Both the position numbers and the translations under genes were made by a program. From assembly GCF_037042905.1 (NCBI RefSeq), contig NC_087249.1, forward strand, positions 41,478,001-41,542,000: a stretch of DNA of 64,000 nt. The letters run 5' to 3'. This DNA comes from Lytechinus pictus (lineage: Eukaryota). Positions 27,621 through 54,089 of this stretch are shown here, piece by piece; positions within the stretch are counted from its first letter, which is position 1; the number at the start of each line of letters is the position of its first letter. The notes beneath the pieces are model-generated. The model saw only the letters and a program-made list of their open reading frames with translations, had not been told where the DNA came from and searched no databases.

Positions 27621-27967
27621 AAGTATGAAGTTTTAGTATGTCATTTTTATTTGCAATTCGATAGCACAAACATGCAACCTTTTGTGCTATTTTGGAGCCA
27701 TATTCCAGCATGGTAAGAATTATCATGAAATATTATGTAACAATTTGTTTTTACAAAGAGTGGTACGGGATCTCCTTATCAATGTTTTTATGTCTTTCAC
27801 TATCGGTCCTGTCCATGTAGTATATTTTATATGTTGTCTCTGATTTTTTCATCAACTTTTTTTCAGCCACCAAATGAGATAGTGATCAGATATTGTTAAT
27901 CATATCTTGTCAAACTCCATCACATGGCTCACATTATCTTGAAAAAGTCTGTATCACCACCTGCATC

Positions 27968-28153
27968 TTACTTACTGAAAATGCTTTTTAAGAATTGACC
28001 ATTCCTGATCTTAAACCTATTAGGATTTACTTTCTGCTGAGGGAGGTTGGAAAGATACATGTAGGACAATGACTTGACGCTAGCAGAGACATTCGTTGCA
28101 CCACTATCAACCAAAATAAACTTGTTCTTTCCATTTAGGAGTTTATCCTTCAC
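27968..28153 (-). pseudogene. LTR-retrotransposon aspartic protease fragment
   Basis: LNGKNKFILVDSGAT retropepsin-like DSG motif. Confidence 0.5.
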
Positions 28154-28279
28154 AGAGTTTCTCTCAAATGCAATCCTTTGTCATCAGTTCCTAAATATGT
28201 AAAAGTCAAATTCAAATAAGGCCAAGTCTGATCTCTTGATTGGGAAGAAGAGCAATGAGCGCTGTTGATCTCTTCAAAA

Positions 28280-29015
28280 AGGATAGATAAAGAATAGATG
28301 TCACAAATGTCTCGCGAAATAATGAGCTCACTGAATACTGCAGAGAATAATTACCTGTTGAAATGTTCAGGTGGTTGATTTGGTTCGCGCAACATGCGTT
28401 TCAGAACTTGCAAATAGTTATCTGCGGGAAAGCCAGAAAATTGTCAACTGGTCCAAATTGCCTAACATCATCAGCTAAATGTATGACAGCATGGATATTA
28501 TAAATTAGCATCTCCTTTACAAACATATCTCCAAAGTTTCTTGAAAACACAATCAGCAATTCCTCCGCATACGTCACATATTTTATTGACAAAGATGGAC
28601 TGCTCAGAATTGTCATGCGGACATGCAAGAGAGAGAAATTTCCAAAAATCTGATCTGACAAAGTGCCTTTCAGGGCAACCATACCTGTATAGATCAAAAA
28701 TGTTCTAAACTCTGTTGCCTTCCATCTATCAATCTCAGCAAGAGATCTCTCTTTTCTTGAAAATTCACTTGGTATAACAGCTTTAAACTGAAGCAAGCTT
28801 CTGGAAATAGCATTGACATTTCCCGTCCAATTCGTGTCTGTAGAGGTCCACGTATCCAGACAAGAATCATTTTCCTGACAATACCTAAACATACATTATG
28901 CATATAATCTATTGGAAATTGACTGACCATTCCTACATGCAGTTGGGTCAATACACTTGTATCGTGATGGTGTTCTTGGTACACTTCTTGGTACACTTTA
29001 TGAAAGCACAGGCTG
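28280..29015 (-). pseudogene. EnSpm/CACTA-type transposase fragment, copy 1
   Basis: FPIDYMHNVCLG, IPSEFSRKERSL, WKATEFR, YNIHAVIHLADDV; frameshifted. Confidence 0.85.
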
Positions 29016-29109
29016 TTATAGGTCGCCTGTTTTAGGCAAGTCAAAATGAAAGAAAAAAAAAAAAATTAGGATTCTTGCATGCACATATCTTGGTCTTCTT
29101 CAAACATGT

Positions 29110-29332
29110 ATGGTACCTGTATGACAGTTTTCTCAGTTTGTGTTTGTGTTTTGCAAGTGGACGCTTGTGATCGGGAGAAAGTTTAATGTAACCGTTGATG
29201 ACGTTGACGATGCATTTGCATATGGCATCTACAAGTTCCTTGTCGGCTGTTTTTAGTAATGCCTTTCACTGATGCTGGCACAGTGGACCAGGGTCTTGAG
29301 AAGAACCGCGTGGGTTTTGATGCGGCCGGACA
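29110..29332 (-). pseudogene. Polinton/Maverick small basic conserved gene fragment
   Basis: SGRIKTHAVLLK...ADKELVDAICKCIVNVINGYIKLSPDHKRPLAKHKHKLRKL, resembling the ICECxLNxLxGN protein found next to the Polinton ATPase; second copy at about 34850-35071. Confidence 0.7.
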
Positions 29333-29369
29333 ACTTTCAAGAATAACGTTACTCCGAGATGAAGTTTTC

Positions 29370-29880
29370 ATTTGGAGGTCGCTGTACTGCGTCTCTCCTG
29401 GAAAGATGTCAGTTCTCAGACGAAAGGAATCGGGAGTGTCTGGTTTTAAATTGATAAAAAAGGTAACGATACTTGTCTTTGGAGGCATAAGTGTAGGCCT
29501 CTCGAAAGTACCTTACATGTCCTGGTTAGTGGTTACATTAGCAAAACAAGTAATATGCATTTTATCTCTACAATTTTTATAAATAAACAGTAATATTGAG
29601 TGTTGAGGGATATTACCGCTGACTCTTTTCCCCTATGAAACAAATATTGACTGATATAGATTGTACTGGCGTTTCTGTGATGACACCCCTTGGTAAACAG
29701 AGCCGCAACTTTTTTGTTATCACCCGCAGTGTCCATCAGGTCATCGATGCTGAAAAAAAAGGTTTTGTATCAGGGCTTTTTGTATTGTCAGTATATTCGT
29801 AAAAATCTTCTGGCAAATTTTCATGAAACTCAATATTTGGAACGGTTTTCAAAATGGTGACATGACACTAGACGAAATAT
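29370..29880 (-). pseudogene. Polinton/Maverick A32-like packaging ATPase, C-terminal part
   Basis: IEFHENLP, Walker B IDDLM, FTKGCHHRNASTIYISQYLF, ISLNTQY, INLKPDTPDSFRLRTDIFPGE; Walker A missing; second copy at about 35110-35620. Confidence 0.88.
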
Positions 29881-29884
29881 CCTT

Positions 29885-32800
29885 CACATCTCTTTTTTGT
29901 TTGTCAAAATGGAAGAAGCTTGACGCTCCTTCCATGCGCATGTCCAGATCTTCTTCGAACATACACTTGGTGTTATACACCTTATTCAATTGGTCAAAAA
30001 TATCTTTGACATTTAATCTGGCTAGGGCGGCTTCGAAGAATTGATGTATCTGTTCATCCCTTGTCAGCCATTGACATTCGGGGTGGTTTCGCTGCCCACC
30101 ATATTCATTTATGCATCCTATGCAGTTCTCATATACAACTTCATTGACTTAATTCGACAACGCTTTTACTGATAATATAAGTGGGCCTGTTGCTATGTTC
30201 AATCTTACCGGAATAGGCCTACTATCGGTATGCTCTGTGACATCCTGCATGTCCACTATCTGTTTTGGGCAAGTCAAAATTCAAGTTCTCTGGACCATTC
30301 TTCCGAGCGATAACATTTCTTTCAACTTTGACTTCACATGGGATTTTACATCTCTTTTTTGTTTGTCAAAATGGAAGAAGCTCGACGCTCCTTCCACGCA
30401 CATGTCCTGATCTTCTTCGAACATACACTTGGTGTTATACACCTTATTCAATTGGTCCAAAAAATCTTTGACATTTAATCTGGCTAGGGCGGCTTCGAAG
30501 AATTTATCTATCTGTTCATCCCTTGTCAGCCATTGACATTCGGGGTGGTCTCGCTGCCCACCATATTCATTTATGCATCCTATGCAGTTCTCATATACAA
30601 CTTCATTGACTTAATTCGACAACGCTTTTACTGCCATTATAACTGGGCCTGTTGCTATGTTCAATCTTACCGGAATAGTCATACTATTGATATGCTCGGT
30701 GATATCGGTCATGTCTGAGTTCTCTGGACCATTATTCCGAGCTATTACATTTCTTTCCATTTTGACTTCACATGGAATTTTACATCTCTTTTTTGTTTGT
30801 CAAAATGGAAGAAGCTCGACGCTCCTTCGACGCACAAGTCCTGATCTTCTTCGAACATACACTTGGTGTTATAGACCTTATTCAATTGGTCCAAAAAATC
30901 TTTGACATTTAATCTGGCTAGGGCGGCTTCGAAGAATTGATGTACAGGTATCTGTTCATCCCTTGTCAGCCATTGACATTCGGGGTGGTCTCGCTGCCCA
31001 CCATATTCATTTATGCATCCTATGTAGTTCTCATATGCAACTTCATTGACTTAATTCGACAACGCTTTTACTGATAACATAAGTGGGCCTGTTGCTATGT
31101 TCAATCTTACCGGAATAGGCCTACTATCGGTATGCTCAGTGACATCCTGCATGTCCACTATCTGTTTTGGGCAAGTCAAAAGTTAAGTTCTCTGGACCAT
31201 TCTTCCGAGCTATTACATTTCTTTCCATTTTGACTTCACATGGGATTTTACATCTCTTTTTTGTTTGTCAAAATGGAAGAAGCTCGACGCTCCTTCGACG
31301 CACATGTCCTGATCTTCTTCGAACATACACTTGGTGTTATACACCTTATTCAATTGGTCCAAAAAATCTTTGACATTTAATCTGGCTAGGGCGGCTTCGA
31401 AGAATTTATCTATCTGTTCATCCCTTGTCAGCCATTGACATTCGGGGTGGTTTCGCTGCCCACCATATTCATTTATGCATCCTATGCAGTTCTCATATAC
31501 AACTTCATTGACTTAATTCGACAACGCTTTTACTGATAATATAAGTGGGCCTGTTGCTATGTTCAATCTTACCGGAATAGGCCTACTATCGGTATGCTCT
31601 GTGACATCCTGCATGTCCACTATCTGTTTTGGGCAAGTCAAAATTCAAGTTCTCTGGACCATTCTTCCGAGCGATAACATTTCTTTCAACTTTGACTTCA
31701 CATGGGATTTTACATCTCTTTTTTGTTTGTCAAAATGGAAGAAGCTCGACGCTCCTTCCACGCACATGTCCTGATCTTCTTCGCACATACACTTGGTGTT
31801 ATACACGTTATTCAATTGGTCAAAAAAATCTTTGACATTTAATCTGGCTAGGGCGGCTTCGAAGAATTTATCTATCTGTTCATCCCTTGTCAGCCATTGA
31901 CATTCGGGGTGGTCTCGCTGCCCACCATATTCATTTATGCATCCTATGCAGTTCTCATATACAACTTCATTGACTTAATTCGACAACGCTTTTACTGCCA
32001 TTATAACTGGGCCTGTTGCTATGTTCAATCTTACCGGAATAGTCATACTATTGATATGCTCGGTGATATCGGTCATGTCTGAGTTCTCTGGACCATTATT
32101 CCGAGCTATTACATTTCTTTCCATTTTGACTTCACATGGGATTTTACATCTCTTTTTTGTTTGTCAAAATGGAAGAAGCTCAACGCTCCTTCGACGCACA
32201 TGTCCTGATCTTCTTCGAACATACACTTGGTGTTATACACCTTATTCAATTGGTCCAAAAAATCTTTGACATTTAATCTGGCTAGGGCGGCTTCGAAGAA
32301 TTGATGTATCTGTTCATGAGTTCATCCCTTGTCAGCCATTGACATTCGGGGTGGTCTCGCTGCCCACCATATCCATTTATGCATCCTATGCAGTTCTCAT
32401 ATGCAACTTCATTGACTTAATTCGACAACGCTTTTACTGATAACATAAGTGGGCCTGTTGCTATGTTCAATCTTACCGGAATAGGCCTACTATCGGTATG
32501 CTCAGTGACATCCTGCATGTCCACTATCTGTTTTGGGCAAGTCAAAAGTTAAGTTCTCTGGACCATTCTTCCGAGCTATTACATTTCTTTCCATTTTGAC
32601 TTCACATGGGATTTTACATCTCTTTTTTGTTTGTCAAAATGGAAGAAGCTCGACGCTCCTTCGACGCACATGTCCTGATCTTCTTCGAACATACACTTGG
32701 TGTTATACACCTTATTCAATTGGTCCAAAAAATCTTTGACATTTAATCTGGCTAGGGCGGCTTCGAAGAATTTATCTATCTGTTCATCCCTTGTCAGCCA

Positions 32801-33145
32801 TTGACATTCGGGGTGGTCTCGCTGCCCACCATATTCATTTATGCATCCTATGCAGTTCTCATATACAACTTCATTGACTTAATTCGACAACACTTTTACT
32901 GCCATTATAACTGGGCCTGTTGCTATGTTCAATCTTACCGGAATAGGCCTACTATTGATATGCTCGGTGATATCGGTCATGTCTGAGTTCTCTGGACCAT
33001 CATTCCGAGCTATTACATTTCTTTCCATTTTGACTTCACATGGGATTTTACATCTCTTTTTTGTTTGTCAAAATGGAAGAAGCTCAACGCTCCTTCCATG
33101 CACATGTCCTGATCTTCTTCGAACATACACTTGGTGTTATACATA
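29885..33145 (-). repeat. Tandem array (462/434/468-470-bp units) of a pseudogenised Polinton-like CxxC..H..C gene
   Basis: Anchor ATTTAATCTGGCTAGG at 30011, 30473, 30907, 31375, 31837, 32271 and 32741; minus strand ENCIGCINEYGGQRDHPEC. Confidence 0.9.
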
Positions 33146-33894
33146 TTATTGAATTGGTCATCTCCACTTCGTTATTGCCCTTTTCCGCCTCCCCCATGTC
33201 CTCTTCTTCCTCCTCCATTTCATAGTCTAAGCGACGGCGTATTGCAGGAAAAAGATATTTGATGAATTTGTCTCCGTCATCATTATCGTCATCCGAAATG
33301 GCAACTATTTGTGGGGTTGGTGGTGGTTGTCTCGATGTGGCGCCTATCCTTGGCTCTTCGTCAAGTTTAGCTACCACTGGTCTCCCACATGGCGTAGTAT
33401 GGAGCATGTTGTCTTTGAAGACGGTGGCAGCCAGCTACCACAGGGGCTTGTGGGGGTGACGCATCATCATCACTCACGATAATCAGTTTGGGTGTTTTGG
33501 CGATGCAGGAGCAGGTTCTGCCGTTCGAGAGATAGAAGCTGCGACGTTCTACTCCTCCATCTCCTTGACCACGTTCTGGATACGAAAAAGAGGAAATGGG
33601 TAGTTTTTTGAATTTGTCTATGTCATCATTATTGCCATCCACAAAGTAGCCAAGCCGTCTAACATGAGTTGAGGTGTCCAGAGCGAAGGCAGAGAGGAGA
33701 GTGATGATGTGGCAGAGATAAGTTGTTTTTTTACCAGATTAGGTAATTGGCAAAGCCGATCTCCTAATATCTATAGTTAAGAAAATAGGAAAGATTGTGT
33801 CCTACCTTAATACTTGTTTGCCAGAGTAGAAAGTGATCAACCGCTCAGATATACTGCACAAATCCCACAAAATATGTTTACACTTTACAATTTT

Positions 33895-34750: not shown

Positions 34751-37700
34751 GTTATAGGTCGCCTGTTTTAGGCAAGTCAAAATGAAAGAAAAAAAAAAAA
34801 ATTAGGATTCTTGCATGCACATATCTTGGTCTTCTTCAAACATGTATGGTACCTGTATGACAGTTTTCTCAGTTTGTGTTTGTGTTTTGCAAGTGGACGC
34901 TTGTGATCGGGAGAAAGTTTAATGTAACCGTTGATGACGTTGACGATGCATTTGCATATGGCATCTACGAGTTCCTTGTCGGCTGTTTTTAGTAATGCCT
35001 TTCACTGACTGCTGGCACAGTGGGCCATGGTCTTGAGAAGAACATGCGTGGGTGTTGATGCGGCAGGACAACTTTCAAGAATAACATTGCTCCGAGGTGA
35101 AGTGTTCATTTGAAGGTCGCTGTACTGCGTCTCTCCTGGAAAGATGTCAGTTTTCAGACGAAAGGAATCGGGAGTGTCTGGTTTTAAATTGATAAAAAAG
35201 GTAACGATACTTGTCTTTGGAGACATAAGTGTAGGCCTCTCGAAAGTACCTTACATGTCCTGGTTAGTGGTTACATTAGCAAAACAAGTAATATGCATTT
35301 TATCTCTACAATTTTTATAAATAAACAGTAATATTGAGTGTTGAGGGATATTACCCTTCACTCTTTTCCCCTATGAAACAAATATTGACTGATATAGATT
35401 GTACTGGCGTTTCTGTGATGACACCCCTTGGTAAACAGAGCCGCAACTTTTTTATTATCACCCGCAGTGTCCATCAGGTCATCGATGCTGAAAAAAAAGG
35501 TTTTGTATCAGGGCTTTTTGTATTGTCAGTATATTCGTAAAAATCTTCTGGCAAATTTTCATGAAACTCAATATTTGGAACGGTTTTCAAAATGGTGACA
35601 TGACACCAGAGGAAATATCCTTCACATCTCTTTTTTGTTTGTCAAAATGGAAGAAGCTCGACGCTCCTTCCATGCGCATGTCCAGATCTTCTTCGAACAT
35701 ACACTTGGTGTTATACACCTTATTCAATTGGTCAAAAAAATCTTTGACATTTAATCTGGCTAGGGCGGCTTCGAAGAATTGATCTATCTGTTCATCCCTT
35801 GGCAGCCATAGACATTCAGGGTGGTCTCGCTGCCCACCATATTCATTTATGCATCCTATGCAGTTCTCATATACAACTTCATTGACTTAATTCGACAACG
35901 CTTTTACTGATAATATAAGTGGGCCTGTTGCTATGTACAATCTTACCGGAATAGGCCTACTATCGGTATGCTCAGTGACATCCTGCATGTCCACTATCTG
36001 TTTTGGGCAAGTCAAAATTCAAGTTCTCTGGACCATTCTTCCGAGCTATTACATTTCTTTCAACTTTGACTTCACATGGGATTTTACATCTCTTTTTTGT
36101 TTGTCAAAATGGAAGAAGCTCGACGCTCCTTCCACGCACATGTCCTGATCTTCTTCGAACATACACTTGGTGTTATACACCTTATTCAATTGGTCAAAAA
36201 TATCTTTGACATTTAATCTGGCTAGGGCGGCTTCGAAGAATTTATCTATCTGTTCATCCCTTGTCAGCCATTGACATTCGGTGTGGTCTCGCTGCCCACC
36301 ATATTCATTTATGCATCCTATGCAGTTCTCATATACAACTTCATTGACTTAATTCGACAACGCTTTTACTGCCATTATAACTGGGCCTGTTGCTATGTTC
36401 AATCTTACCGGAATAGGCCTACTATTGATATGCTCGGTGATATCGGTCATGTCTGAGTTCTCTGGACCATTCTTCCGAGCTATTACATTTCTTTCCATTT
36501 TGACTTCACATGGGATTTTACATCTCTTTTTTGTTTGTCAAAATGGAAGAAGCTCGACGCTCCTTCCACGCACATGTCCTGATCTTCTTCGAACATACAC
36601 TTGGTGTTATACACCTTATTCAATTGGTCAAAAAAATCTTTGACATTTAATCTGGCTAGGGCGGCTTCGAAGAATTGATGTATCTGTTCATCCCTTGTCA
36701 GCCATTGACATTCGGGGTGGTCTCGCTGCCCACCATATTCATTTATGCATCCTATGCAGTTCTCATATACAACTTCATTGACTTAATTCGACAACGCTTT
36801 TACTGATAATATAAGTGGGCCTGTTGCTATGTTCAATCTTACCGGAATAGGCCTACTATCGGTATGCTCAGTGACATCCTGCATGTCCACTATCTGTTTT
36901 GGGCAAGTCAAAATTTAAGTTCTCTGGACCATTCTTCCGAGCTATTACATTTCTTTCAACTTTGACATCACATGGGATTTTACATCTCTTTTTTGTTTGT
37001 CAAAATGGAAGAAGCTCGACGCTCCTTCCACGCACATGTCCTGATCTTCTTCGAACATACACTTGGTGTTATACACCTTATTCAATTGGTCAAAAAAATC
37101 TCTGACATTTAATCTGGCTAGGGCGGCTTCGAAGAATTGATGTATCTGTTCATCCCTTGTCAGCCATTGACATTCGGGGTGGTCTCGCTGCCCACCATAT
37201 TCATTTATGCATCCTATGCAGTTCTCATATACAACTTCATTGACTTAATTCGACAACGCTTTTACTGATAATATAAGTGGGCCTGTTGCTATGTTCAATC
37301 TTACCTGAATAGGCCTACTATTGATATGCTCGGTGATATCGGTCATGTCTGAGTACTCTGGACCATTATTCCGAGCTATTACATTTCTTTCCATTTTGAC
37401 TTCACATGGGATTTTACATCTCTTTTTTGTTTGTCAAAATGGAAGAAGCTCGACGCTCCTTCCATGCACATGTCCTGATCTTCTTCGAACATACACTTGG
37501 TGTTATACACATTATTGAATTGGTCATCTCCACTTCGTTATTGCCCTTTTCCGCCTCACCCATGTCCTCTTCTTCCTCCTCCATTTCATAGTCTAAGCGA
37601 CGGCGTATTGCAGGAAAAAGATATTTGATGAATTTGTCTCTGTCATCATTATAGTCATCCGAAATGGCAAATATTTTTTGGGTTGGTGGTGGTTGTCTCG

Positions 37701-37980
37701 ATGTGGCGCCTATCCTTGGCTCTTCGTCAAGTTTAGCTACTACTGGTCTCCCACATGGCGTAGTATGGACCATGACAGCATGTTGTCTTTGAAGACGGTG
37801 GCAGCCAGCTACCACAGGGGCTTGTGGGGGTGACGCATCATCGTCACTCATGATAAACAGTTCGGGTGTTTTGGCGATGCAGGAGCAGGTTCTGCCTTTC
37901 GAGAGATAGAAGCTGCGACGTTCTGCTCCTCCATCTCCTTGACCACGTTCTGGATACGAAAAAGAGGAAATGGGTAGTTT
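33895..37980 (-). repeat. Segmental duplicate of 28276-33605 (EnSpm, Polinton ATPase, array, SDDD protein)
   Basis: Same order and near-identical sequence; shorter array (anchors 35749, 36211, 36645, 37107). Confidence 0.92.
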
Positions 37981-38046
37981 ATTTTTCTTTATTCGAAATA
38001 CATTTTTTTTGTAATCATTTGTATCATCATTTTTAGGACACTTCAT
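37414..38046 (-). pseudogene. Low-complexity acidic ORF with SDDD motifs (probably Polinton accessory)
   Basis: 210-aa ORF; same sequence as 33145-33600 and the 266-bp array. Confidence 0.45.
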
Positions 38047-38219
38047 TTTTGGGGGGTTGTTTATCTAGTTTTTTTTATCAAATGCTTTTAACAAAATTCA
38101 CAGAAAAATGCAAACTATAGGAACCAAAATAAGTTATGATGTTATTGTTGTAGTGCAAACTTATTTCTTACATTGATTAATTCCCGGACATATTTACTTA
38201 TGTCAAGTTTGGCCTGCAC

Positions 38220-38410
38220 CAAATGCCATTAATTTTCTGTCAAATTGATCCCCTTCTGTCCGGGAAGCATTATATTAGTTCCTTTCAATTTGTAGTACTC
38301 CCTAATATTGATGTAGGGGACACCCCTAAATTTCTTGACCACCGCAAAACGTTTAACCCCCAAGTGGAATGGTTTGGAGCCTTCCTCAAATTTGCACGAA
38401 TCTAATTTCT
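38220..38410 (-). pseudogene. PC4/Sub1-like ssDNA-binding protein (Polinton-type)
   Basis: FHLGVKRFAVVKKFRGVPYINIREYY...PGQKGINLT. Confidence 0.85.
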
Positions 38411-39099
38411 GACTAAAATGGCACCGCACCGTCAACCAATATTCGCTTTTTCTATCTTCCAATGCATAATAAAAAGACAACAACGTACAAACATTTATTA
38501 GGCATACATATTGAATATTTTTCTCTTGCATCTTAAACACTAAAACTAAATAAAACAAGAACAAATAATAATTTCACTTACCACCAATGTTTGGAATCCC
38601 GGAGGAGGCGATGGTGTGACCTTTCTCTGCTCAGTTGGTCAGAAAATCACAATAGACAACTTACTGCCCAACATGAATAAGAAATTATTTTGCAAGATCA
38701 ATACAACACCCACAACTCCATCCCCTTGTCCCAACCGTTTCCCAACCGTTCCCTGATCCACCAGTCTTTTTAAAGGCCTACATCTGTTGAGTTGATGCCA
38801 TTGAACGAGAGGGGGTGGTGGTTGATCTCCTTTTCCTCCTTTTAGCCACTTTCATCAATTATCTGTGTGTTTTTTTTGGGGGGGCCTGGGACTTCAGGTT
38901 CCATATTTCAATCTTCATAAGTAGAAGAATGAAAAGGTAAATGTCCGAAATACCTTTCCATTCCCGTAATTTAGATTTAGTCCTCTGTGCCATTTTATTC
39001 TCTGAATCATAGTACTGTTCTTCTAATTTGGACTTTACAGTTATAGGGTGTCTTATGTGGGCAAGTCAAAATGAAAAAAACCGCAGGATTTTTGCATGC

Positions 39100-40066: not shown

Positions 40067-40929
40067 AACGTTAAAACCTATAACTGTGATAATATATTCA
40101 TCGTGGCAGCCTTGCTTAAATATGTCAAGCAGCTTTTGAGCTGCCGTTTCATGAGAAAACTCTGATTTCTACCAGCCTACTGGCATTGAGTTGAAGGCGT
40201 TTAAGGAAATCTTAGGGCTTCTCCTGTTTGTCCTGAACCATGCCCATAAATTCTTGCAACAACAGGTTGTAATTCTGCACCCTCCCATATATGCTATCCA
40301 AGAAAGAGAGCAAATCTATTAAAGGCGGTGGCAGTTGATGCAACCTGCTTCGCAAAGTCCTTGGCAGGCAGGACAAGTCTCCCAATCGACTTCACCCTGC
40401 TTTACCAGAAAACAGGCCAAGTCGGGGCAGACGAGACTGAGAGAACCACTCGCACCAAGTGACTTCGAATAAGCTGGTCCAACTGTTCTCTAGTTAACCC
40501 AGACTCACTCAGGAAAGCACTTAATGTGTCAGTGGTAGGCATGGCAGGAGGAGGTGAATCTTCCTTCACTTCAAAAGACGAGCTAAGAAGATTGTCACTC
40601 TCTTGTGCCATGAATATTATAGAAAACAAATAATAAACAGAATTCTATTCAATTATCTTACCCTAACAAATAAAAAGGACTGTGAATACTGAGCAGAAGT
40701 AAATGTAACCAGGAAGATGTTAAATCTTTACTATACTTTACAAATGCAAATAAACAATATAATACTTAAAATAAAACATCACATAAAAAATCAACATGTA
40801 TAAAATATGAAAATACAGTTTTTTTTAATTGCACACTAACCTATCCAAATAATAGACTAGTCCAGTCTACTATAGAGGTGTGTGCAAAGTATGACAAAGA
40901 CAAAAGGACAAAGAAGGTGTCTGGGGGGT

Positions 40930-41192
40930 CTAGAGCACAAAGGCCCATTCAACTTGAAACTCTGAACATTCAGTGTCTAGCTCAGACAGGTTAATGAAAA
41001 AAAAAAAAGTGCAATCAGTGGGTCTACCTATGATTATTAACACATACACTGAAGCTCCAGTGTATGTGATTTTAACATTAACACTGAATATATAAAATAA
41101 TATTATGTAGTACACCAAAGGGGTGCTACAACTGAATTAACATTAACACTGTATATCAAAAAGAATATTAGGAATTACACCAAAGGGGTGCT
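40930..41192 (-). mobile_element. LTR-like terminus remnant
   Basis: TACACCAAAGGGGTGCTACA (TGTAGCACC.. on minus strand) shared with 50450-50809. Confidence 0.45.
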
Positions 41193-41207
41193 AGAGCAGG
41201 AGAAAGA

Positions 41208-42965: not shown

Positions 42966-43728
42966 CGTTTTAGAGAGAGAAGCTGCGCCGTTCAATTCCG
43001 CATCCATCTCGTTGACCACGTTCTGGATACAAAACAGAGGAAATTGGTAATTAGATATAATTTTTTTGTAATCGTTGTTATTTGTATCATTATCAGATTA
43101 TTGGGGGTTGCTGTTTATCTAGTTTTCTTTTTATCAAATGCTTTAAACCAAAATTTACAGAAAAATACAAGCTATAGGAAACAAAATAAGTTATGATGTT
43201 ATTGTTATTTCTTTCCATTCCTTCACTTCATCCTCCGAGACAGCTATGCCAGCAGCTCCGGCCTGATGTACTCCTAAAATAGGCTCATCCTCTGGTGTTG
43301 CACCAGTAGAGGGGATGTCACTCCTCACAGACAACTTTTTTGCCTTTTTTGGTGATTTCTTTTGCTTATGGGCGACATGTTGCACCAAAACTATTCACCA
43401 GTAACGAAGTGGAGTATTATGTATATGTCAAGTTGATCAGAAGTAGAAGATCCAGGCTATCAGAATATCTCGTGGAGTGGTTTAAAAGGGTGTACTGTTT
43501 AGCTGGCTGCCATTTTGTATTTTTTTTTAGATGGAGGTGCGTCTCCTCTGTAGGCCTCTGTTTCGCGTCGATTCCTTTGTTCGGAAGAGATCCCAGCAAC
43601 GTTTCTGGCTACGACCCATGTCCACAATTTAGCACAACTTTCACACCAAACGATGAAACAACAACAGCACAACAATGATTTAAATTCCAATAGAGTCGAT
43701 GTCTCAGTCATCACGAACCAGGCTATGA

Positions 43729-44073
43729 CAGACCTGCCAACCAGTACGTTTTAGCCGTATTTAGTACATTTTTGCAACCAAAATACGGCAGTACGTTTTT
43801 TCTTCGACAAATACGTTTTTTGTAAAAAAAAAAATGATAATAATCTCTATATGTCTCTATTTCATAAAACGTGCATTAGATCAATGTAATTTCAGGTAAC
43901 TTGTTTTTTTTTTCATCTGCAAGAGCAGTGCGCATTTTAGCTTGCATGCAGCTTGAGCGCCGCGATGAGCGAGTGCGCCAAGCATTTTATTATGAAATAC
44001 ACTTTTTTGGGGAAAAATACATTTTTTTAAATCACAGAATACAGTTTTTCATTCCCAGAGGTTGGCAGGTCTG
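43729..44073. mobile_element. hAT-like MITE with 6-bp TSD
   Basis: 14-bp TIR CAGACCTGCCAACC; CTATGA on both flanks. Confidence 0.8.
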
Positions 44074-44649
44074 CTATGAGCGATCTAAAAAATAACGTCA
44101 TGTTTGGCCTCCCCGTGTCGACTGCTAATCTAGCTTATTCTGGATTTTTACCTCTGAACTGAACTGTCGAAAGTCATGAGAGGATCGGGTCGATGTTCTA
44201 CCAAGGGTAGAGGTAAAGCAACGTGAACGGCAGCCTGGCCGCCTAGCCAGTGTGCCTTCTGCAAGAATTATGGAGAAAGCGAGATGTACAAAACATGCCT
44301 ATACAATATTCATTATACATGTAGCTCCTCAAAGGGTCCCTTGACCCTCAACTTCTTTCATATTCGGAAAGAGGATGAATTTTAGACATGATTTCATGTC
44401 TTTTTTACCCTCAATGAATGCTGAAATTAAAATCCCTTTATTCATATTCTTTCCACACAACTTTAATTCTCATTTCCCATTTTTCAAGATTTATCAACAC
44501 ATTCTTTTCAGAATAAGAGTTCAGTTTTCATCATGATGATCATATTGATCTGAATGAATATGGTGATCACATTCATGACCATGAAAGTCAGAGACAGATC
44601 ACCTAATTCGTCCTCGTGACAAATTAAAATTCTAGTTACCTAAATTTTT

Positions 44650-45351
44650 CTTGGATTTGTTCTTTTTCTTGCACAATGCATTCATTTGTATTTCCTTTTC
44701 CAATGTTACGTAGTGAGGCCTTTTTTGGTTACCTTCATGTAGCACTCGTGGGTCGGCTCATTCACACACTCCTTGCATATCGTGCAAAAGACTTGCGAAC
44801 AATCGTGGTCTTTCCTATATCCCGGAAGGACACCGACGTTGAACACATGCTCGCATTTTGGGCATTTGTTTTTGGTGTTACAAGCTGTTTCACCTTTGAA
44901 CTGTGCCGCGCTATGCAATCGAAAACACTGCTTTGTGAGGAATACCATGTTATAGTCTGCGCAGGTGCAAAGTGAGCATTTGGCGAGATCGTTACGGTCA
45001 CAATCGTTTGATGGCTATCGGGACAAATTTTGCAGCATTCATTCTGTAATACGGATTGTGTACTTCCACTGCACTTTTTGCATGCATTTCTCACGCATAA
45101 AAAGCAGCCATGTTTCTTATCACACTGTAGTGACCTGATTTGGTTCAGATACAGGTTAATGTTTTTGTCAGTGGGAGGACCCGCATAAATTCTAGAGTGG
45201 CCTCTTACGACCTCAATAAAATTACCAATCCATACTCTGGGTGTAAAACGGCTTGGAATTTACTGTAATGGCTCAAATCCTCTTCTCCTACTTGAACCCC
45301 ATCCCAGCACATGGAGTTTTGAAGCCTCTCATTTATTAGCCCTGCAGTAGG
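44650..45351 (-). pseudogene. Polinton/Maverick pPolB N-terminal Cys-rich region, copy 1
   Basis: KFQAVLHPEY, IYAGPPTDKNINLYL, GHYSVIRNMAAF, KCPKC..HDCSQVFCTICKECV..HECYMK. Confidence 0.75.
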
Positions 45352-45410
45352 CTTTCTTTTTTATTATTATAAAATTGATTCCTGTTCGATACTAGATTAT
45401 GACAGCAGTT

Positions 45411-46702
45411 TTACTTTGTTGGACATGTAAGAACATTATGTCCAGAGCCATGGCAGTTAGAGCACTTGTACGATCTAGAAGAAACCTTCACCAAATGCTT
45501 GAGCTTTGGGCTTGTGTAAAGCCAGTGAACCCCAATAATATCTCTGAGAGAAGCAAGAGTATTACTCTTTCTAGAGAAGTTCCGGCTCAAGTCTCTGAAG
45601 AGTTTATTTGCAGCCTCGTTGCCTTCTCCACTCAGAGCACTAATTGTCCCAGGGCCAAGAGGGTCTTGCAATACCTCCTGCACATGTTCAATAACCGTAT
45701 GAAGGTAATTGGGCCAGGATGCATATATATGTGAAATTACGTTGCAGGAGATCTGCCATCTGGATGGCATTGGCTTTGTACTCTGCGACATCAGCTGACC
45801 TTGGATGATGGGCCCTGTATACTGTACGGAGCTTAGTGAAAAGAACCATTACATCACGAAGATGATTCCTTCTCTCTTCATCAGGGATGATGCTAAGTAC
45901 TGAAGACATGTTATCAGGATCAAAAAGATGACGAGCATAATTACCTGGCATCATCAGGTTGGGTGCAAGTCCAAGCGTGGCTCTCATGTGGTCATTGAAC
46001 CGTTTCTCCCCATCCTCAAACATCGCCTTAACATCACGAGATATCTCCCATGTGTACGTACGTGCGACTTCACAAATGATCAATTTTTTTTAAAAAGATC
46101 CAATATTGATATCGGCATGAGTGGCATCTAATAATTTGTGATGAGGTTCTGATTTGAGAATTGGGTAGTCCTTTACTCCTTTTGCCACACTAGCCAAGTC
46201 ACTTTGGCTCAAATCGTCTGGATTTGTTTGGACATAGCTAGCAATGTCTACATTCTCTTCCAAGGTGCGGGTGATCTTAAATGTGCCGACATGTGAACGC
46301 GCCGTCTCTCTTGTCGCATGACAAAGAGTGCAGAGGAACTTTGACCCGCTTCCTTGGAGACCTCCCTGTGATCTGTCTAATTTCTCATCTATCATTGAGT
46401 TGAAAAAGATCAACCGATGTCTCCTCCACCATTCATTTGCGTGAACGCGCTGTGCTCTATACAGTCAAGCATTGTCACTCCACACGCTACATGATTGTCA
46501 TCTGCAATTGCCTCCAAATGGGCCTAGTAATTGTGATGGAGTTCGGGTTGTCGGGTTCATAGATGATAGCTTTACCCCCATCCTCCAACTGTACCTCGCA
46601 TTTGATAATGGCAAAGGCAGCTCAAAAGGCTTTATTTGGCAGTAGCCTAGCACTCGCTTCCTTTATGATGCTGATGTCTCCCATACCATCCGCACCATCC
46701 TT
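45411..46702 (-). pseudogene. RAG1L: RAG1-like (RAG1L/ProtoRAG-type) transposase catalytic core plus CTT1 tail, disrupted
   Basis: KDGADGMGD (D600 equivalent, 46688-46690), PNS..RP, MIDEK (D708 equivalent, 46387-46389), GSGSKFLCTLC, LDATH, MMPGNYAR, WPNYLH..IEH, EGNEAANKLFR (E962 equivalent, 45615-45617), HWLYTS, CSNCHGSGHNVLTC. One stop and several frameshifts. Confidence 0.92.
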
Positions 46703-46735
46703 CCCAATCGGATTCAGAAACGTCGATTGCATGCG

Positions 46736-47600
46736 GCGCTATGCAATCGAAAACACTGCTTTGTGAGGAATACCATGTTATAGTCTGCGCAGGTGCAAGG
46801 TGAGCGAGATCGTTACGGTCACAATCGTTTGAATGGCTATCGGGACAAATTTTGCAGCATTCGTTCTGTAATACGGATTGTATACTTCCACTGCACTTTT
46901 TGCATACATTTCTCACGCATGAAAAGCAGCCATGTTTCTTATCACATTGTAGTGACCTGATTCGGTTCAGATACAGGTTAATGTTTTTGTCAGTGGGAGG
47001 ACCCGCATAAATCCTAGAGTGGCCTTTTACGACCTCAATAAAATTACCAATCTATACTCTGGGTGTAAAACGGCTTGGAATTTACTGTAATGGCTCAATC
47101 CTCTTCTACTTGTACCACTGCCAGCTCATGGAGTTTTGAAGCCTCTCAGTTTAGCCCTGCAGCAGGTTTACAATCACTGCAGAACCACACCTTATATTTA
47201 TGATCCTTGTTCACAAAGTCATGCAATGACCACTTCATTGGCAAAACACACACTTTTTCTGTTCCTTGGAAGAAGGGATGGTGATGATAGATGAATTTCG
47301 AAAACATGCTTTGTCATCGCGCAGCCCATCTTTTTTCTCACGTAGCCCACCCCCCCCCCCCCCCCCCCCGGTGGGGTTGATGACATGGTGGAAATGGATG
47401 GTGAAGCCAGGGTTCAATATAAATTCCTGGTTTCTGTTTAAAACTCTCTCAATGCGATCAAGAATAGCACTTACATGTATATCAAACTCACTAACGACGG
47501 CCCAAGGGAATGTGAGGGGGACGCTATGTAATTTAGCACCTCCCATACCGAAGTATGATTCCTAATGTTCCCAACTAAATCATACCATGATTCTCTTACG
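46736..47600 (-). pseudogene. Polinton/Maverick pPolB N-terminal region, copy 2
   Basis: AILDRIERVLNRNQEFIL..FTIHFHHVINPTGGG..SIITI; 46736-47166 duplicates 44908-45351. Confidence 0.78.
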
Positions 47601-48652
47601 TCGAAGCGTTTGGATATACGAGAATCTACAAAATGCCACCTCAACGTTTCTGAATCCGATTGGGAATTAGGACCAAGAGGCTCATAATTTTAGGGGGAAT
47701 CCACCGGTTCTACATTATTTTTCTTTTGTTTGCGTTTTCCCCTTTTTTGGAATTTGGCTTAAGAGGCTCATCACTCTTGGGGTTCCACAGGTTCTACTTT
47801 TTTTTTCCCTTTGCGTTCACCGCCACCTCCCCCCTTTCAAGAATTTTGATTGATTTCACCGCCACCTCTTTGTGGTGTCGGCAACCAAGGGAATGTGAGG
47901 GGGGACGCTATGTAATTTAGCACCTCCCATACCGAGGTATGATTCCTAATGTTCCCAACTAAATCATACCATGATTCTCTTACGTCGAAGCGTTTGGGTA
48001 TACGAGAATCTACAAAATGCCACCTCAACGTTTCTGAATCCGATTGGGAATTAGGACCAAGAGGCTCATAATTTTAGGGGGAATCCACCGGTTCTACATT
48101 ATTTTTCTTTTGTTTGCGTTTTCCCCTTTTTTGGAATTTGGCTTAAGAGGCTCATCACTCTTGGGGTTCCACAGGTTCTACTTTTTTTTTCCCTTTGCGT
48201 TCACCGCCACCTCCCCCCTTTCAAGAATTTTGATTGATTTCACCGCCACCTCTTTGTGGTGTCGGCAACCAAGGGAATGTGAGGGGGGACGCTATGTAAT
48301 TTAGCACCTCCCATACCGAGGTATGATTCCTAATGTTCCCAACTAAATCATACCATGATTCTCTTACGTCGAAGCGTTTGGATATACGAGAATCTACAAA
48401 ATGCCACCTCAACGTTTCTGAATCCGATTGGGAATTAGGACCAAGAGGCTCATAATTTTAGGGGGAGTCCACCGGTTCTACATTATTTTTCTTTTGTTTG
48501 CGTTTTCCCCTTTTTTGGAATTTGGCTTAAGAGGCTCATCACTCTTGGGGGATCCACAGGTTCTACTTTTTTTTCCCCTTTGCGTTCACCGCCACCTCCC
48601 CCCTTTCAAGAATTTGGATTGATTTCACCGCCACCTCTTTGTGGTGTCGGCA
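47503..48652 (-). repeat. Tandem repeat, 3 x 384 bp
   Basis: ORFs recur at 47660, 48044 and 48428. Confidence 0.95.
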
Positions 48653-49749
48653 GAGTCTTGTTGGGAACTTGAATATTGTATTCATCGTCTGATGAGAAAA
48701 TACAGTTGACGTGAGCAGTTGGGCCTTTTTTGTTATATTCTGATTTTATTATTGTTATTATTTATTCGGCATTTCAAAATACATAAATTACAGTACAATG
48801 CAAATTACATAAACAATAGGACATACGTGACATAATACAAAGGACCTGGAATAGAGATGAAGGGGCTGCCTGGGTTTGGAAAAGGTTAACTAAATTACCA
48901 TGACCCACAGGTCTTCCTTCCCACACCCCTTTACCTCCATCCAGGTCAGTATAAGAATGTAAAAAGAAACATATGAATTAAAAGTATACAACTGAAACTG
49001 GCAACAGTTAATTTGGCGAAACAGATGTAACATGGATCCATCAGCAATTATCATTTCCTGGACCTTCCTGATGAGATGGGGCAGGAATATCCAAATTGAT
49101 AGGAATATTGGCAGGCTCTGGGACTAAGGCGTTTGAACATGGATCATTGTGTTGTTTTGCCCGTTTTCTCCTTCGAAGTTTGTTTCTAAGATCCGATTTT
49201 GATTGAGGGGGAACTTGAATCTCTTCGTCATCCTCCGATGAGAAAATAAAGTTGAAGTGGGGACATGGGGGTTGTTTTGACACGTACTGATTTCCAGAAG
49301 ACTCTGCGTGATGAGAAGGGGTGGGGATGTCGCGATCGTTCAGGATATTGGTACGTTCTGGGACTGATGCATTTGAACTAAATTGAGTCTTGCCTAGTTA
49401 CGTTTTCCTGCTTTATTGGAGTATGGATTGATTTTCTTTCAGATCGGTCTCGTCAATGTTTTTTTCTTTTTTGGAATATGAATTTCGTCTTCTTCGTCTG
49501 ATGAGGTGAAAAAATTGATGTATTGAATTCTAGGCTCTGAGTGATGAGAAGCGGCGAGGATGTCTCGATGGTTAGAGACGTTTGATTGTTTTGCTATTCT
49601 TTTCGTTGTCTTATGTTTTTTAGACTTTGAGTTATCTCTTATTGGCACACGATGGCACTGCCTGTTATTCGGCATTGTGTGCAGAAGGCAGAGCCTCGAT
49701 AAATCATCATCCGACCAATTATCAATTTGATTTTTCTATGTTGGAGGCT

Positions 49750-50350
49750 TCAGGAGCACCATGGCTCGCATGGTTACCCCTATGACCCACATCTCTTACA
49801 GAATTCTCGACTATGCATTGCTCAACTCCTCCTCTAGGCTTCTGTTCATTTCGATGATGTCCATTGCTTCCACTAGCGATGTTGGCTCTTTCATCCCTAC
49901 TGTGATCGCTTAATGCTGGTCACTCAGCCCTTTCATAAAATGTCGAATGGCGATTGACTCTCTGGTAGCTGTGTCTGCTGTCAGGTAGCCTTTATTGGTC
50001 AAAGTTCGTAGGTCGGCTACATATATTCGGCAATCGATTCAGTCCTTTTCAGTTTTCTTGCCTCCAATTTTGCCAGGTATGATGCAGCAGGACGACGGTC
50101 TCTGAAGCGTCGCAGCAGACTAGTCATGAGCTCGTCATAGGTTAGTTCATTAAAACTTGGCAATTCGAATATATCTTCGGCCGCCTCTCCTTGTAGAGCC
50201 GATGCAAGCCTTATTCTTTTCTCTTCTGAGCTCCATCCACTCGAAAATGCAAGAGTCTCAAACTGATTTTTGAATGCAAGTAGTGACGATGTTCCATCAT
50301 ACGAGTTTTGCCATGGAAGTGGTATTGTAGTTTTCAGAATCCTCTCTGCT
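49750..50350 (-). pseudogene. Ty3/Gypsy-like gag fragment
   Basis: YDGTSSL..FE..A...GW..EEK...LASALQGEA, YDEL...L..RF, ESIAEY..DL, AIRHFMKGL. Confidence 0.8.
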
Positions 50351-50449
50351 TGGAATAAGAAATCGCATGTCAAAATTTATGAAATAAAACATGTAATAGT
50401 AGAATCTCAAACCGACCTTTAGAATTTGGAGGGAATTTTTCTCAGACAA

Positions 50450-52050
50450 AGAAGGTGTTTCTGAGTCTAGGGCACAAAGGGCAATTAAACTTGGAGTAAT
50501 CTGAACATTCATTGTTTAGCTCAGACAGGTTAATATAAAGACAAAAGAGTGTTTGCAACCAGCAAGCCCTATGATTTATAACACATGCACTGAAGGTATG
50601 TGAATTTAACATAAGTTAGGGAAGATCTGGAAGAACATATATTTTATATTCTTAAGGAATGAAACATATACACAGTAGAAGTAATTTATGTTGCAAATAT
50701 TGAAGAATTCATATTATACATGTAGCTAAAGAGATATACATGTATGTTTAAAATCAAGAAATCATACCAAAGTTAAAAAGATTATGTAGTACACCAAAGG
50801 GGTGCTACACAAGCATGAGTAGGCTGCACCAAGTATTGTGTTCTAAATCCTAGTATTATAGCTTTTATCCCCTGAGTATTTAGTATGGTGTTACTCATAA
50901 GTAGTTCATTGTTATACCACTGAACTCTAACAATTGTATAGTTATGTATAGTTCAGTGGTTTATACTGTACACAATGTTTACAGCTTTTTCTTAACTTAA
51001 ACTGAAATGAAATGGATATTTTACTCTTACACATAGTTATCCACAAACCAGTTGCTGAACTTTGGATCCTTCCAGTACTCCTCGACTCCATGTAGTCCCA
51101 GTTTGGTATGGCCTCCAGGAGGTCAACATGAAATTCTTCTGGTGTCTCGACATCCACCAGACCCAAGGTTCTAATGCGTCTTTAGGAAATTAGTACTGTC
51201 AATTTCCTAATTATGAAATAGAAAAGGAAAGATTGTGTCCTACCTTACACATGCCTATAATTTGACTGAGGAAATGGATGACATAGCAGATAGATGTAGC
51301 ACTTCACTGGCAGTTGCCGCTCAAGTATTGCACAAATCCCGAAAGTTGTATTTACAATTTACAAAAGTACATGTATATGAAAGGTAAAATATATAGAGTA
51401 GAAATCACGGTTGTAGAAGGATAACTCGCGAAGTAGCAAGGCCTCACTAAATGTAGAGAATAGACTTCAAGAGGTGTGATTTAAAGTAGAGAATAGCAAA
51501 ATAAAACTGTAGAAGGGTAGAAGTAAATTGTAGTTCTCTAGTGGGCACGTGCTCCACGAAAGCAAGCTGAGACGAAGAGATGTTGTCAGAGCGAAGACAG
51601 AGAGAAGAGTGGTGATGTGGCAAAGTAGCAAGTTGGTTTTTTGCCAGCATCACCAAAAAGAGGGGGTACGAAAGACCGTGCCCAAAAGAGAGGCAAAAAC
51701 ACAGTTGAAAGGAGATGAGAGAGAGAGAAGAAAGAGCATATGTGTAGTGATGCAGTATAAGTGCAATTGGGAGCAAGGCCAGGACAATAAATCAAGTACA
51801 ATGTCAGGTTGCTTTGCTCCGAGTCCATTATGTAAAAGTGAAAGGAAGATGTTTGTTTGTAAGATTTAGGCAGAAAATATGCAAGAATGCCACGTTTTGC
51901 ACATGTGCAGTACACTAGTGGTATATATGCAATGTAGCACAAACAAGTGTAAAAAAGAGATGTATATGAATGTATAGCGGAAATAATATATATACATGTA
52001 ATGTAGAAAAAAACAACTGAAAATATACACAAGGGAAAGAATAGATATGC
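50450..52050 (-). mobile_element. LTR-retrotransposon-like non-coding remnants
   Basis: LTR-like end at 50809; 51200-51640 resembles 33660-33890; adjacent to gag. Confidence 0.4.
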
Positions 52051-53269
52051 TATAGTCAAGTCACTACACGTCCATCATGGGTGTCAACTTCATTGCCATA
52101 GGTCTAATCCAGAATTTCCTTCTGTGTGTCTTGATCAATCCCCAGCTCAATCAATTTCTGTTTGCAGTTCATCCTTCCATGTAACATGCAAAGAAGCCAA
52201 GAGGAAATCTTTATTTTATTTTTTCCTTTATTTTTTAGTTTATTTTATTCATTTTTTAATGCGCCGTTTCATGCGCCACTTCACGTGCCATATCACATGC
52301 CGATTATTGCTCTGTATAATGCGGCGTGCTTTTTACACTAAGCCTTTTCATGCGAGTACCTCGCCTGGCTCTTTGTATACTAATCTTCAATCAATCAATC
52401 TTATCACCATGTGTGGCTGCCGCTCTTTATCCTGGATAAGTGGACGGAGTTTCAAAGTCAGTACACTCCAACAGAAATATATTCACGAAAATGGCGTTGG
52501 CTTATGTTAAATGGTGCTTTATTTCATCATCCCAGATGAACCAAGATCGAGATAAAATACTGAAAATAAAACAGATACATATAAACATTTTGAGTTACAC
52601 ATTCAATCAACAAATGATTATACTCTACTTGTAATACTTAATTCTACATAACTTATATCTTGCTCTAAACTATTGACAGAAATACAGATATGAAATCTTA
52701 CCAATTGGAGGCTATAAGACAAGTACACCAGCAGTGAGAATCATCATGACAGTCGACTGGAGTTCGTCTCTCTCTCTTCTTTATAACACAAACTGAAGTC
52801 TCTTGGCTTTTTCAGTCTCTTTTTAAGGACTCTGATCAAACCAGAATGCACTAGACAGACTAATTAGAAATTAAGAGGAGCTAGTACTACTCAGCACTCA
52901 ACACCTTACAGACAAAGAACTTGATCGGCTATTCAAATCAGAACAATGAAGGTTGGACATTAGTCTAAAGACTTGGCTTTTCTCTGCCTACAGTTTTAAC
53001 ATATAACCAGCCCGATGGGAGTTTGTGTAGAAAAGGATTAAGAAAACCCAAAGTGCAAAATGAAACATTTTAAGTGGAATTTGAATTTAGACAACATATA
53101 TCGGACATAAATATATGCAGCCAAATATTACATAAATTTTCACTGCACACTGCTGCAGTGACACCATGTATGTAATTATGCGGGTAGAATTAGTCTTCGT
53201 CCAAAATGTACAGTGACTCGTTACATCATGCATTTCTTCTGTATTATCTTGTGGATGGCTGGGCTCTCA

Positions 53270-53450
53270 TTGCATAATGCTTCAAATTCTGCCGTGGTCA
53301 AAGTCACCCCCTTGTTGATGGGTTAGAACTTGCTGTTTTTCTCAAAGTAGTATAGTGGATGTCCACATGCACTTTATTGAGATACGTCTTGGCCACCACG
53401 TATTTCCGCCGCTTTTGCTTCAAGCTGATTGGACATTTGAAGAGAATTTC
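53270..53450 (-). pseudogene. Second, divergent PC4-like gene fragment
   Basis: RKYVVAKTYLNKVHVDI, frameshift, then PINKGVTLTTAEFEAL. Confidence 0.65.
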
Positions 53451-54089
53451 TGATTCCACGTCACCGTCTTTCTCCACGGGTTGTTGCGTCCATGCCACGC
53501 TTGTACCTGTCATGTCTGCAGGATTGTTGGTGATTGGATGTTTTCAGTTTTTTGGTTATACCCAAAATCATGGACAACACAAAAATTAACAAAAATGCTT
53601 CACACTGTCAACACACATCAAATCATCAGTGTCCTCACTGACGCAACGTATAGTTTACTTCTTGGTATCTCTTATAAGCAACATTTCCCACAACTTTATC
53701 AAACAATAGTACTTTAATTTGGTAGTTTGGTGTATATTCCCACTTCAATCAAAACCCAAATGTCAATCTTTCATTTCTTATCCCACCGCTGCTCACCAAA
53801 TGTTACGTAAATGGTTGAAGTGCTTGGAGTACAAAATAACACTGCACAAATTCATGTAGTTCAGAGTTACATGTATAATGAATTTCAACAAGAGTTCTTA
53901 TGTGTAGTATGATGTATAAGACCCTTGACATTAGTCATTAAGTTCTGACACTTTTTGCTTTTTGCATGATTAATGATCTTGTAGAAATAAGTACTTGGCC
54001 TTAAAATTTAATTCTTCTGAAATATTTTTCACCTATATTTAACTTTCTACCCCCACACTGAAAGTCACTGTCACCTTTGAAAAAAGAGA

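Follow-up and report, generated by a model that had tools for sequence, protein, structure and literature searches.

The locus examined here raises the question of why a block of about 25.6 kb (27977-53555), lying behind an expressed and spliced gene on the same strand, carries transposable element (TE) fragments of many kinds on the opposite strand. Coordinates refer to a window of 64,000 nucleotides of the Lytechinus pictus genome (NC_087249.1, 41,478,001 to 41,542,000). The block is an archive of shortened TE insertions facing against the direction of the host gene AASDH, with low-level, mostly plus-strand transcription. Its most probable nature (we would put the probability at roughly 0.6) is that of a read-through, mostly one-strand candidate piRNA cluster, like the mammalian piC-DoGs and the mosquito core clusters.

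AASDH is a plus-strand gene with Pfam matches to AMP-binding, PP-binding and Beta-prop_ACSF4. Six GT..AG splice joints were seen in RNA, and the last exon has 96% identity with a Lytechinus pictus protein labelled beta-alanine-activating enzyme-like. The stop codon (27540-27542) is followed by AATAAA at 27615 and the first TE piece at 27977, a distance of about 360 bp, in agreement with the 350 bp given in a first-pass annotation of this DNA. The last exon with its poly(A) signal is likely the entry point of read-through RNA. At the far end, contig depth drops after 55733, near AATAAA 55507 and ATTAAA 55769, suggesting a second poly(A) region near 55507-55769. The plus strand of the block keeps 16 AATAAA sites, which we count against read-through; an apparent depletion of such sites (16 in 25.6 kb, with 16-52 across 38 overlapping windows) was dropped as an argument because it is confounded by composition.

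Table 1. Pieces of the block and its borders, in order of position.
Feature	Position	Strand	Remarks
AASDH last exon, stop codon, first poly(A) signal	27115..27620	+	Pfam, RNA, protein match
Gypsy protease fragment	27977..28268	-	68% identical in DNA to an open pol frame of 1612 aa elsewhere
Gypsy LTR piece and EnSpm/CACTA-type transposase fragment	28273..28980	-	
Further copies of the preceding piece	33733-34707, 39100-39531	-	
Polinton A small gene and packaging ATPase fragment	29116..29864; second copy 34852-35602	-	84% to intact C3 Polinton
Polinton B terminal-module orphan gene, tandem 430-470-bp copies	29883..33601; also 35620-37526, 39693-40067	-	14 units (two incomplete)
Polinton B orphan gene and PC4 fragment	37550..38634	-	
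Gypsy (PNMA-type gag) 5' LTR and gag fragment	40083..41193	-	LTR 5' end mostly kept
Polinton B orphan gene, 266-bp tandem copies	41199..43222	-	Copies 98-99% alike
LINE (CR1/L2-like) ORF1 fragment	43217..43522	-	87-92% to copies elsewhere
Host nanos gene fragment, broken	43667..44286 (43667-43703 and 44078-44286)	+	78% to intact gene on C2; MITE-split
MITE, complete, high-copy	43729..44073	.	14-bp TIRs, ctatga target duplication; inserted in nanos piece
Polinton A pPolB N-terminal half, in pieces	44636..49805	-	44636-45354; 46737-48723 (three 384-bp copies); 49055-49805
RAG1L core fragment, frameshifted	45400..46689	-	C-terminal Cx2Cx3GHx4C tail; between two overlapping pPolB pieces
Non-LTR 3' end with tail repeat	48742..49057	-	Young (96%)
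Gypsy gag fragment	49801..50354	-	85% to a family with six copies ~99.5% alike
Three LTR or LTR-like pieces	50349..52079	-	50349-50815, 5' end kept; 50818-51031, likely minus; 51181-52079, oriented by 65% similarity with a Gypsy LTR region
BEL/Pao LTR and leader piece	52412..53164	-	LTR 5' end adjoins Polinton PC4 piece
Polinton A PC4 gene fragment	53159..53555	-	Ends the mosaic
Transcribed tail with two MITEs	53556..55790	+	RNA contig depth

All 17 TE-coding segments of the block were on the minus strand, whereas 478 kb of flanking sequence had 13 on plus and 10 on minus (Fisher p=1e-4, for a window chosen post hoc). The 17 segments reduce to about 14 independent insertions, all minus where orientable, and for 13 independent insertions the two-sided binomial p is 2.4e-4, the window again being chosen post hoc. 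Six classes are represented (Polinton, Gypsy, BEL, EnSpm, LINE and RAG1L), where at least four had been claimed, and identity to relatives elsewhere indicates ages from old (68%) to young (96%). Elements elsewhere in the genome match 82% of the block (20939/25579 bases); the TE library was made from the block's own relatives, so the density contrast with the flank is inflated and only the strand contrast is fair.

The named fragments (a Gypsy protease, three EnSpm, two Polinton ATPase, two PC4, several pPolB and RAG1L) were all recovered on the minus strand, together with gag, which derives from two Gypsy families. The broader statement that every coding fragment is minus holds for TEs and fails for the host nanos fragment; no other oriented piece of any length was found on the plus strand. 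The genes described as viral are Polinton genes, and no other virus was found. Using Pfam on stop-to-stop frames of at least 40 amino acids (127 minus and 150/160 plus frames, frames wholly within repeat copies being omitted), four minus frames and no plus frame scored above the curated cut-off. Short EnSpm, ATPase, pPolB, gag, protease and nanos pieces are invisible to Pfam and were identified via intact genomic relatives.

The pieces had been described as devoid of TIRs and target site duplications. The MITE has both, and one natural end each is kept by two Gypsy LTR pieces, a BEL LTR and a LINE tail. Since several pieces retain one true terminus, they were presumably inserted first and then trimmed in place. 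Joints between pieces are sharp, and several share 3-6 bases. An assembly artefact is unlikely, as tandem copies differ by 1-12% and several joints are crossed by RNA contigs. The segment 38635-39099 has no match elsewhere in the genome, and Rfam and tRNA scans of the 64-kb window returned nothing.

Transcription of the block was assessed in two mapped parts, on either side of 30341-42969 (12.6 kb). In X1, a 3956-nt spliced AASDH contig extends to 28791, 1.2 kb past the stop codon and into the block, and depth was present in 30/30 bins of both mapped parts, while checked introns were empty. X1 and the genome assembly may not be independent, with zero mismatches over several pieces, and one contig is no proof of a single transcript. 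Mean plus depth per bin, from about 6% of each run, was 0.43-0.63 in the block (the left figure being inflated by multi-copy units) versus 1.58 in AASDH bins. High plus-RNA depth at 43.4-44.3 kb was excluded, as these reads come from other copies of the high-copy MITE. Stranded runs, calibrated on AASDH (91:0 plus:minus), were counted in 19/30 bins after dropping the MITE, the young LINE end and 53.9-56.6 kb. The left block gave 32:0 read-equivalents and the right block 74:29 (X19 21:21, X20 26:0, X21 27:8), with some minus-RNA reads mapping to the locus-specific RAG1L piece. The predicted plus-strand RNA antisense to the TE pieces is supported over both mapped parts, and on the left one contig joins it to spliced AASDH; in the right half the one-strand prediction is weakened, about 28% of reads (29/103, 21 of them from X19) being minus.

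To account for these observations, we propose that some AASDH transcripts pass over the first poly(A) signal and continue for about 28 kb, probably as a single continuous precursor from the AASDH promoter to near 55.75 kb. This RNA would be processed into predicted antisense piRNAs that would act in trans to silence Gypsy, Polinton, LINE and related elements. The block would have grown by nested insertion, then deletion and local tandem duplication, with selection presumably retaining antisense pieces. Sense insertions behind the poly(A) signal should spare the AASDH mRNA, so that the usual intron argument fails to explain the bias. Live targets are available: Gypsy families elsewhere in the genome have LTR pairs 99.6-99.9% alike, and an intact Polinton has TIRs that are 97.8% identical. 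In the ATPase, PC4-A and gag pieces, 46-54% of 26-mers are within three mismatches of a copy elsewhere. With respect to retrieved copies, the proportion is 22% block-wide and falls to 8% for the units with the strongest amplification, so that a large part of the archive may be out of date.

An alternative is a transposon graveyard with leaky read-through, no piRNA role and a Polinton arm that inserted after AASDH and served as a neutral landing pad. Sense insertions would have been purged, because read-through would express them or because they end transcription, and deletion and duplication would have done the rest. The low RNA level, the poor resemblance of the most strongly amplified units to living copies, a RAG1L piece without an intact close relative, and the Polinton share (about 14 of 25.6 kb, colinear with two parents) all fit this possible, if unlikely, explanation. 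However, it demands that short, non-coding sense pieces of LTRs and LINE tails be strongly purged past a poly(A) signal, and X1 covers the block while checked introns are empty. Moreover, in mouse the TEs behind ordinary read-through genes are about as often sense as antisense, an antisense excess being confined to productive piRNA loci (PMC11615739).

Quite improbable is a piRNA source driven partly by its own or LTR promoters, either with a right half transcribed from both strands or with a separate plus transcript from about 50.9 kb. The minus-RNA reads of the right half would fit, as would four LTR pieces within 50.3-53.2 kb and the X1 depth, which rises abruptly from 17 to 120 over 50.1-50.9 kb. 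But the step may be due to 3' bias or repeat k-mers, as the contig starts in a multi-copy LTR piece; X20 has no minus reads, and the left block is exclusively plus and contiguous with spliced AASDH.

The Polinton parts consist of two colinear scaffolds (A and B) plus tandem copies, so that Polinton pieces are not independent. The Polinton B orphan gene was not adopted as a host gene, having two homologues, both in this species and in a 3.6-kb unit with PC4. This unit begins with an AGTAGT end, as Polinton A does, and on C16 lies upstream of integrase and capsid-like frames. Polinton A pieces keep their parental order across 29.1-53.6 kb, but one cargo-capturing non-autonomous element (the alternative offered in the first-pass annotation) or a single decayed Polinton is hardly credible and largely refuted: genome searches gave no second locus joining different families in block order, the pieces match different loci with unshared joints, several retain their own LTR or LINE ends, no end TIR pair was present among the 25 longest of 479 inverted pairs, and the block has no integrase or capsid piece, only ATPase, small genes, the pPolB N-half and PC4 of two families.

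Read-through clusters resembling the favored reading have been reported. The piC-DoGs of mouse, human and hamster are piRNA clusters that follow genes, with dense antisense TE fragments directly past the last exon of the host (PMC11615739). As in the block, the spliced host transcript is prolonged past the poly(A) site, and a second poly(A) site is inferred. In contrast to piC-DoGs, where piRNAs have been demonstrated and LINE-1 and ERVs prevail, the block is a candidate in an echinoderm rather than a mammal and is dominated by Polintons, with EnSpm and RAG1L. Mosquito core clusters likewise start directly behind a modestly expressed same-strand gene and have antisense content, and those formed by read-through show a stronger RNA-seq signal at cluster ends (bioRxiv 10.1101/2022.08.22.504762), comparable to X1, whose depth is highest at 50.9-55.7 kb. 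They trap non-retroviral viral elements and have been tested by knock-down, whereas the urchin content is transposon and Polinton sequence.

The parallel with flamenco, drawn in the first-pass annotation, extends to TE fragments lying opposite to transcription in flam-like unistrand clusters (PMC10643416), yet the block is closer to piC-DoGs and mosquito read-through clusters. The flam-like candidates measure 227-1085 kb and have a Gypsy-driven bias (PMC10643416), as opposed to 25.6 kb and six classes here, and flamenco has its own promoter (bioRxiv 10.1101/2022.08.22.504762), while the block sits behind a gene. In two further cases, Tirant insertions lying antisense within the 3' UTRs of host genes (PMC13226689) and the anchors of "promoter hijacking" (PMC13252550), a host transcript likewise brings antisense TE sequence into the piRNA pathway. 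By analogy, such an event is a plausible seed for the urchin locus, although these are single fly insertions or mammalian loci and the block is a many-layered archive. Read-through piRNA clusters are a known kind, and the block is likely a candidate added member. In the open-access literature (titles and abstract starts) we found no account of this locus or of echinoderm read-through clusters.

If confirmed, the block would add an invertebrate deuterostome to the mammals and mosquitoes in which read-through piRNA clusters are known. It would also offer a discrete 25-kb unit that can be deleted, with two predicted targets, a Gypsy family active in the recent past and an intact Polinton. Orientation filtering of host sequence by clusters would also become testable. 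In line with the favored reading, the nanos piece, the sole host-gene piece, is sense to the block RNA, and this orientation is the harmless one. It is a rather doubtful extrapolation that sea urchins have read-through piRNA archives behind housekeeping genes throughout the genome, that the piC-DoG mechanism dates to the deuterostome base, and that this locus remembers giant Polintons and an extinct RAG-transposon lineage, sorting self from non-self by orientation (TE pieces antisense, the captured piece of the germline gene nanos only in the non-silencing sense orientation).

As for RAG1L, the best PDB match is 6b40 (RAG1L), and the piece is a 1.3-kb frameshifted core with pPolB pieces on both sides rather than a RAG (ProtoRAG-type) transposon, which would have TIRs enclosing an intact RAG1L and RAG2L. 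The idea of a silencing memory against RAG transposons lacks an intact target: open RAG1L frames elsewhere have about 64-65% DNA identity (where long alignments exist), and the closer relatives (77-86%) are broken relics. A RAG1L locus on C9 was rejected as a copy of the mosaic, as RAG1L is the sole coding piece that it shares with the block. A 26-nt inverted templated patch is found at 46701-46726.

The TE-fragment block behind AASDH is most likely a read-through piRNA cluster, a reading to which we give a probability of about 0.6. It resembles the mammalian clusters downstream of genes (piC-DoG; PMC11615739) and the mosquito core clusters (bioRxiv 10.1101/2022.08.22.504762) as the consulted parts of the sources describe them, both being of read-through type and defined by their piRNAs, a product that is predicted for the block. 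The block is nearer to these than to flamenco, the model of the first-pass annotation, from which it differs in size, content and promoter as far as the consulted parts of two sources describe it (PMC10643416; bioRxiv 10.1101/2022.08.22.504762). Most clusters outside flies are unistrand, according to part of a planarian preprint (10.64898/2026.01.28.702291). Among the titles and abstracts listed by a literature search, none dealt with the locus or with echinoderm read-through clusters.

From one study, three stranded runs depleted of rRNA (X19, X20 and X21, about 6% of each) and, besides these, one contig run (X1) were placed on 19400-30340 and 42970-56600, leaving out 30341-42969, and depth was converted to read-equivalents with both mates counted. 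RNA supports six GT..AG joints in AASDH. Plus to minus read-equivalents were 91:0 over AASDH (eight bins), 32:0 in the left block (seven bins) and 74:29 in the right block, where 19 of 30 bins were counted and 11 with high-copy repeats or past the block were dropped; by run, the right block gave 21:21 (X19), 26:0 (X20) and 27:8 (X21). The left side is in keeping with the proposed plus-strand precursor or AASDH read-through, and a 3956-nt X1 contig of spliced AASDH exons also extends into the block there; the right block is mixed. A cluster driven by promoters of its own, or by promoters in both directions, is improbable; the minus reads speak for it and the plus-only left side against it. X1 depth, from contigs whose strand and single molecules are not resolvable and whose origin is possibly common with the assembly, was present in 30 of 30 bins of each mapped region, at 8-19 between 43 and 48.4 kb in bins that hold a single family; in three exon-intron bins it equalled the exon share alone (arithmetic on depths), and therefore the introns there are empty. 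The RNA level of the block is low. A graveyard of transposons under leaky read-through is the foremost alternative, though an unlikely one.

Positions of features in the window (plain coordinates; the window is C5:41478001-41542000) and at other loci of the genome (C2, C3, C4 and C9 are other contigs)
Feature	Position	Strand	Remarks
AASDH intron tandem copies	16617-18746		three 710-bp copies, 99.8% alike
AASDH stop codon	27540-27542	plus	
A[AT]TAAA motif	27615		sole one within 27541-27980 (motif scan)
Block	27977-53555		
X1 contig end	28791		
Duplicated unit	28.3-33.9 kb		
Its repeat	33.9-39.6 kb		96-99%
Unmatched piece	38635-39099		465 bp; genome search, no match elsewhere; two short minus-strand frames
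nanos fragment	43667-43703, 44078-44286	plus	
X1 depth 120	50903-53964		
X1 depth 132	55140-55733		10 beyond
Poly(A)-type motifs near X1 drop	55507, 55769		AATAAA, ATTAAA
Gypsy, intact-looking	C5:41558347-41566355		PHD finger after integrase; 663-aa TatD nuclease frame directly downstream, same strand
Tandem duplications, 6-kb scale	C2:13440000-13470000		one exon each, presumably Sp/buttonhead N-terminal box-like; Polinton B module inserted in one
Polinton A, intact-looking	C3:20662988-20680224		17.2 kb; TIRs 97.8% alike; open pPolB, integrase-chromo, capsid-like frames, protease, ATPase, PC4
Open RAG1L frame	C4:15674907-15676589		
Second one-strand heap	C9:18117000-18196000		RAG1L relics, Helitron-like and LINE pieces; 20/21 segments plus in 120 kb, many within 4.1-kb tandem units; 303-aa minus-strand frame directly right
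Two broken nanos copies	C9:26566800-26570300	plus	84-85% to C2 gene; one abuts minus-strand Gypsy; neighbours are minus-strand B-box-like and LINE ORF1-like frames

With block-relative TE proteins and flank TE frames as library over 504 kb, all 17 block segments were minus, versus 13 plus and 10 minus among the 23 outside (Fisher p=1e-4). Only this strand contrast is fair, because the library is skewed to the block's families, and the 17 are not independent, because the pieces of Polinton A keep the order of one arm of their parent, those of Polinton B are copies in tandem, and one stretch is duplicated. Counted by source, with LTR and LINE-end pieces oriented via their parents, about 14 insertions are present, all minus (two on weaker evidence); for 13 on one strand the two-sided chance is 2.4e-4, uncorrected for a window picked by its pattern. 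The suspected orientation bias holds against the flanks. The claim that every recognisable coding fragment is minus holds for TE-coding segments and fails for a host fragment of nanos (78-84% to the intact C2 gene), which is split by a complete MITE. Any small RNAs from this fragment would not be expected to pair with nanos mRNA, since it reads in the same sense as the plus RNA. By a second explanation it may have come as antisense cargo of a retroelement, since the broken C9 copies oppose the adjoining Gypsy element.

Parents were identified by querying the own genome (812 Mb) at DNA and protein level with most of the block and fetching the relatives; tiling assigned 20939 of 25579 block bases. 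Proteins of this genome carry the database label Lytechinus pictus, a sea urchin. The parents comprise Polinton A (an intact element of 17 kb that encodes a 1786-aa pPolB, ATPase, integrase, protease and PC4 and is bounded by TIRs of 646 bp), a PC4-orphan module from the end of another Polinton (Polinton B), four Gypsy families, one BEL element, a LINE ORF1 region, a young non-LTR tail and a transposase that we take to be of EnSpm type from DUF4218 and a motif. The nearest PDB match of the RAG1L piece is 6b40 RAG1L. Pfam scans of 127 minus frames yielded PC4 and three frames of RAG1; among the plus frames, of which 150 out of 160 were scanned, no match passed a cut-off.

Some pieces retain one natural end, namely the 5' end in two pieces of Gypsy LTR and in the BEL LTR and the tail in the LINE piece, with sharp joints on the opposite sides; 3-6 bases are shared at 5 of 10 joints inspected by eye, and at the RAG1L joint 26 nt of pPolB sequence from close by recur in inverted form. 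These marks suggest that pieces inserted in place and later underwent deletion, template switching and tandem duplication. Identities to parents span 68% to 96%, which shows accretion over a long time. A single cargo-capturing element, raised in the first-pass annotation, is rejected as highly improbable, because genome searches with block pieces returned the whole mosaic at no other locus and none of the 25 longest of 479 inverted pairs forms end repeats at the block boundaries.

For the putative read-through cluster, uneven matching suggests at the sequence level that live targets exist for part of the archive and that another part is probably obsolete. At least 22% of block 26-mers differ from some fetched copy by no more than 3 mismatches. 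The share reaches 53% in gag from a Gypsy family whose six copies are about 99.5% alike, and 46% and 54% in the ATPase and PC4 of Polinton A, but stays at 6-9% in pPolB and at 8% in those units of Polinton B that are most amplified. Block RAG1L matches broken relics at 77-86%, and open RAG1L frames elsewhere (612-624 aa) at about 59% protein identity and 64-65% in long DNA alignments. Such open frames lie on C4 and on two further contigs, C182 and C233, whose scores are identical.
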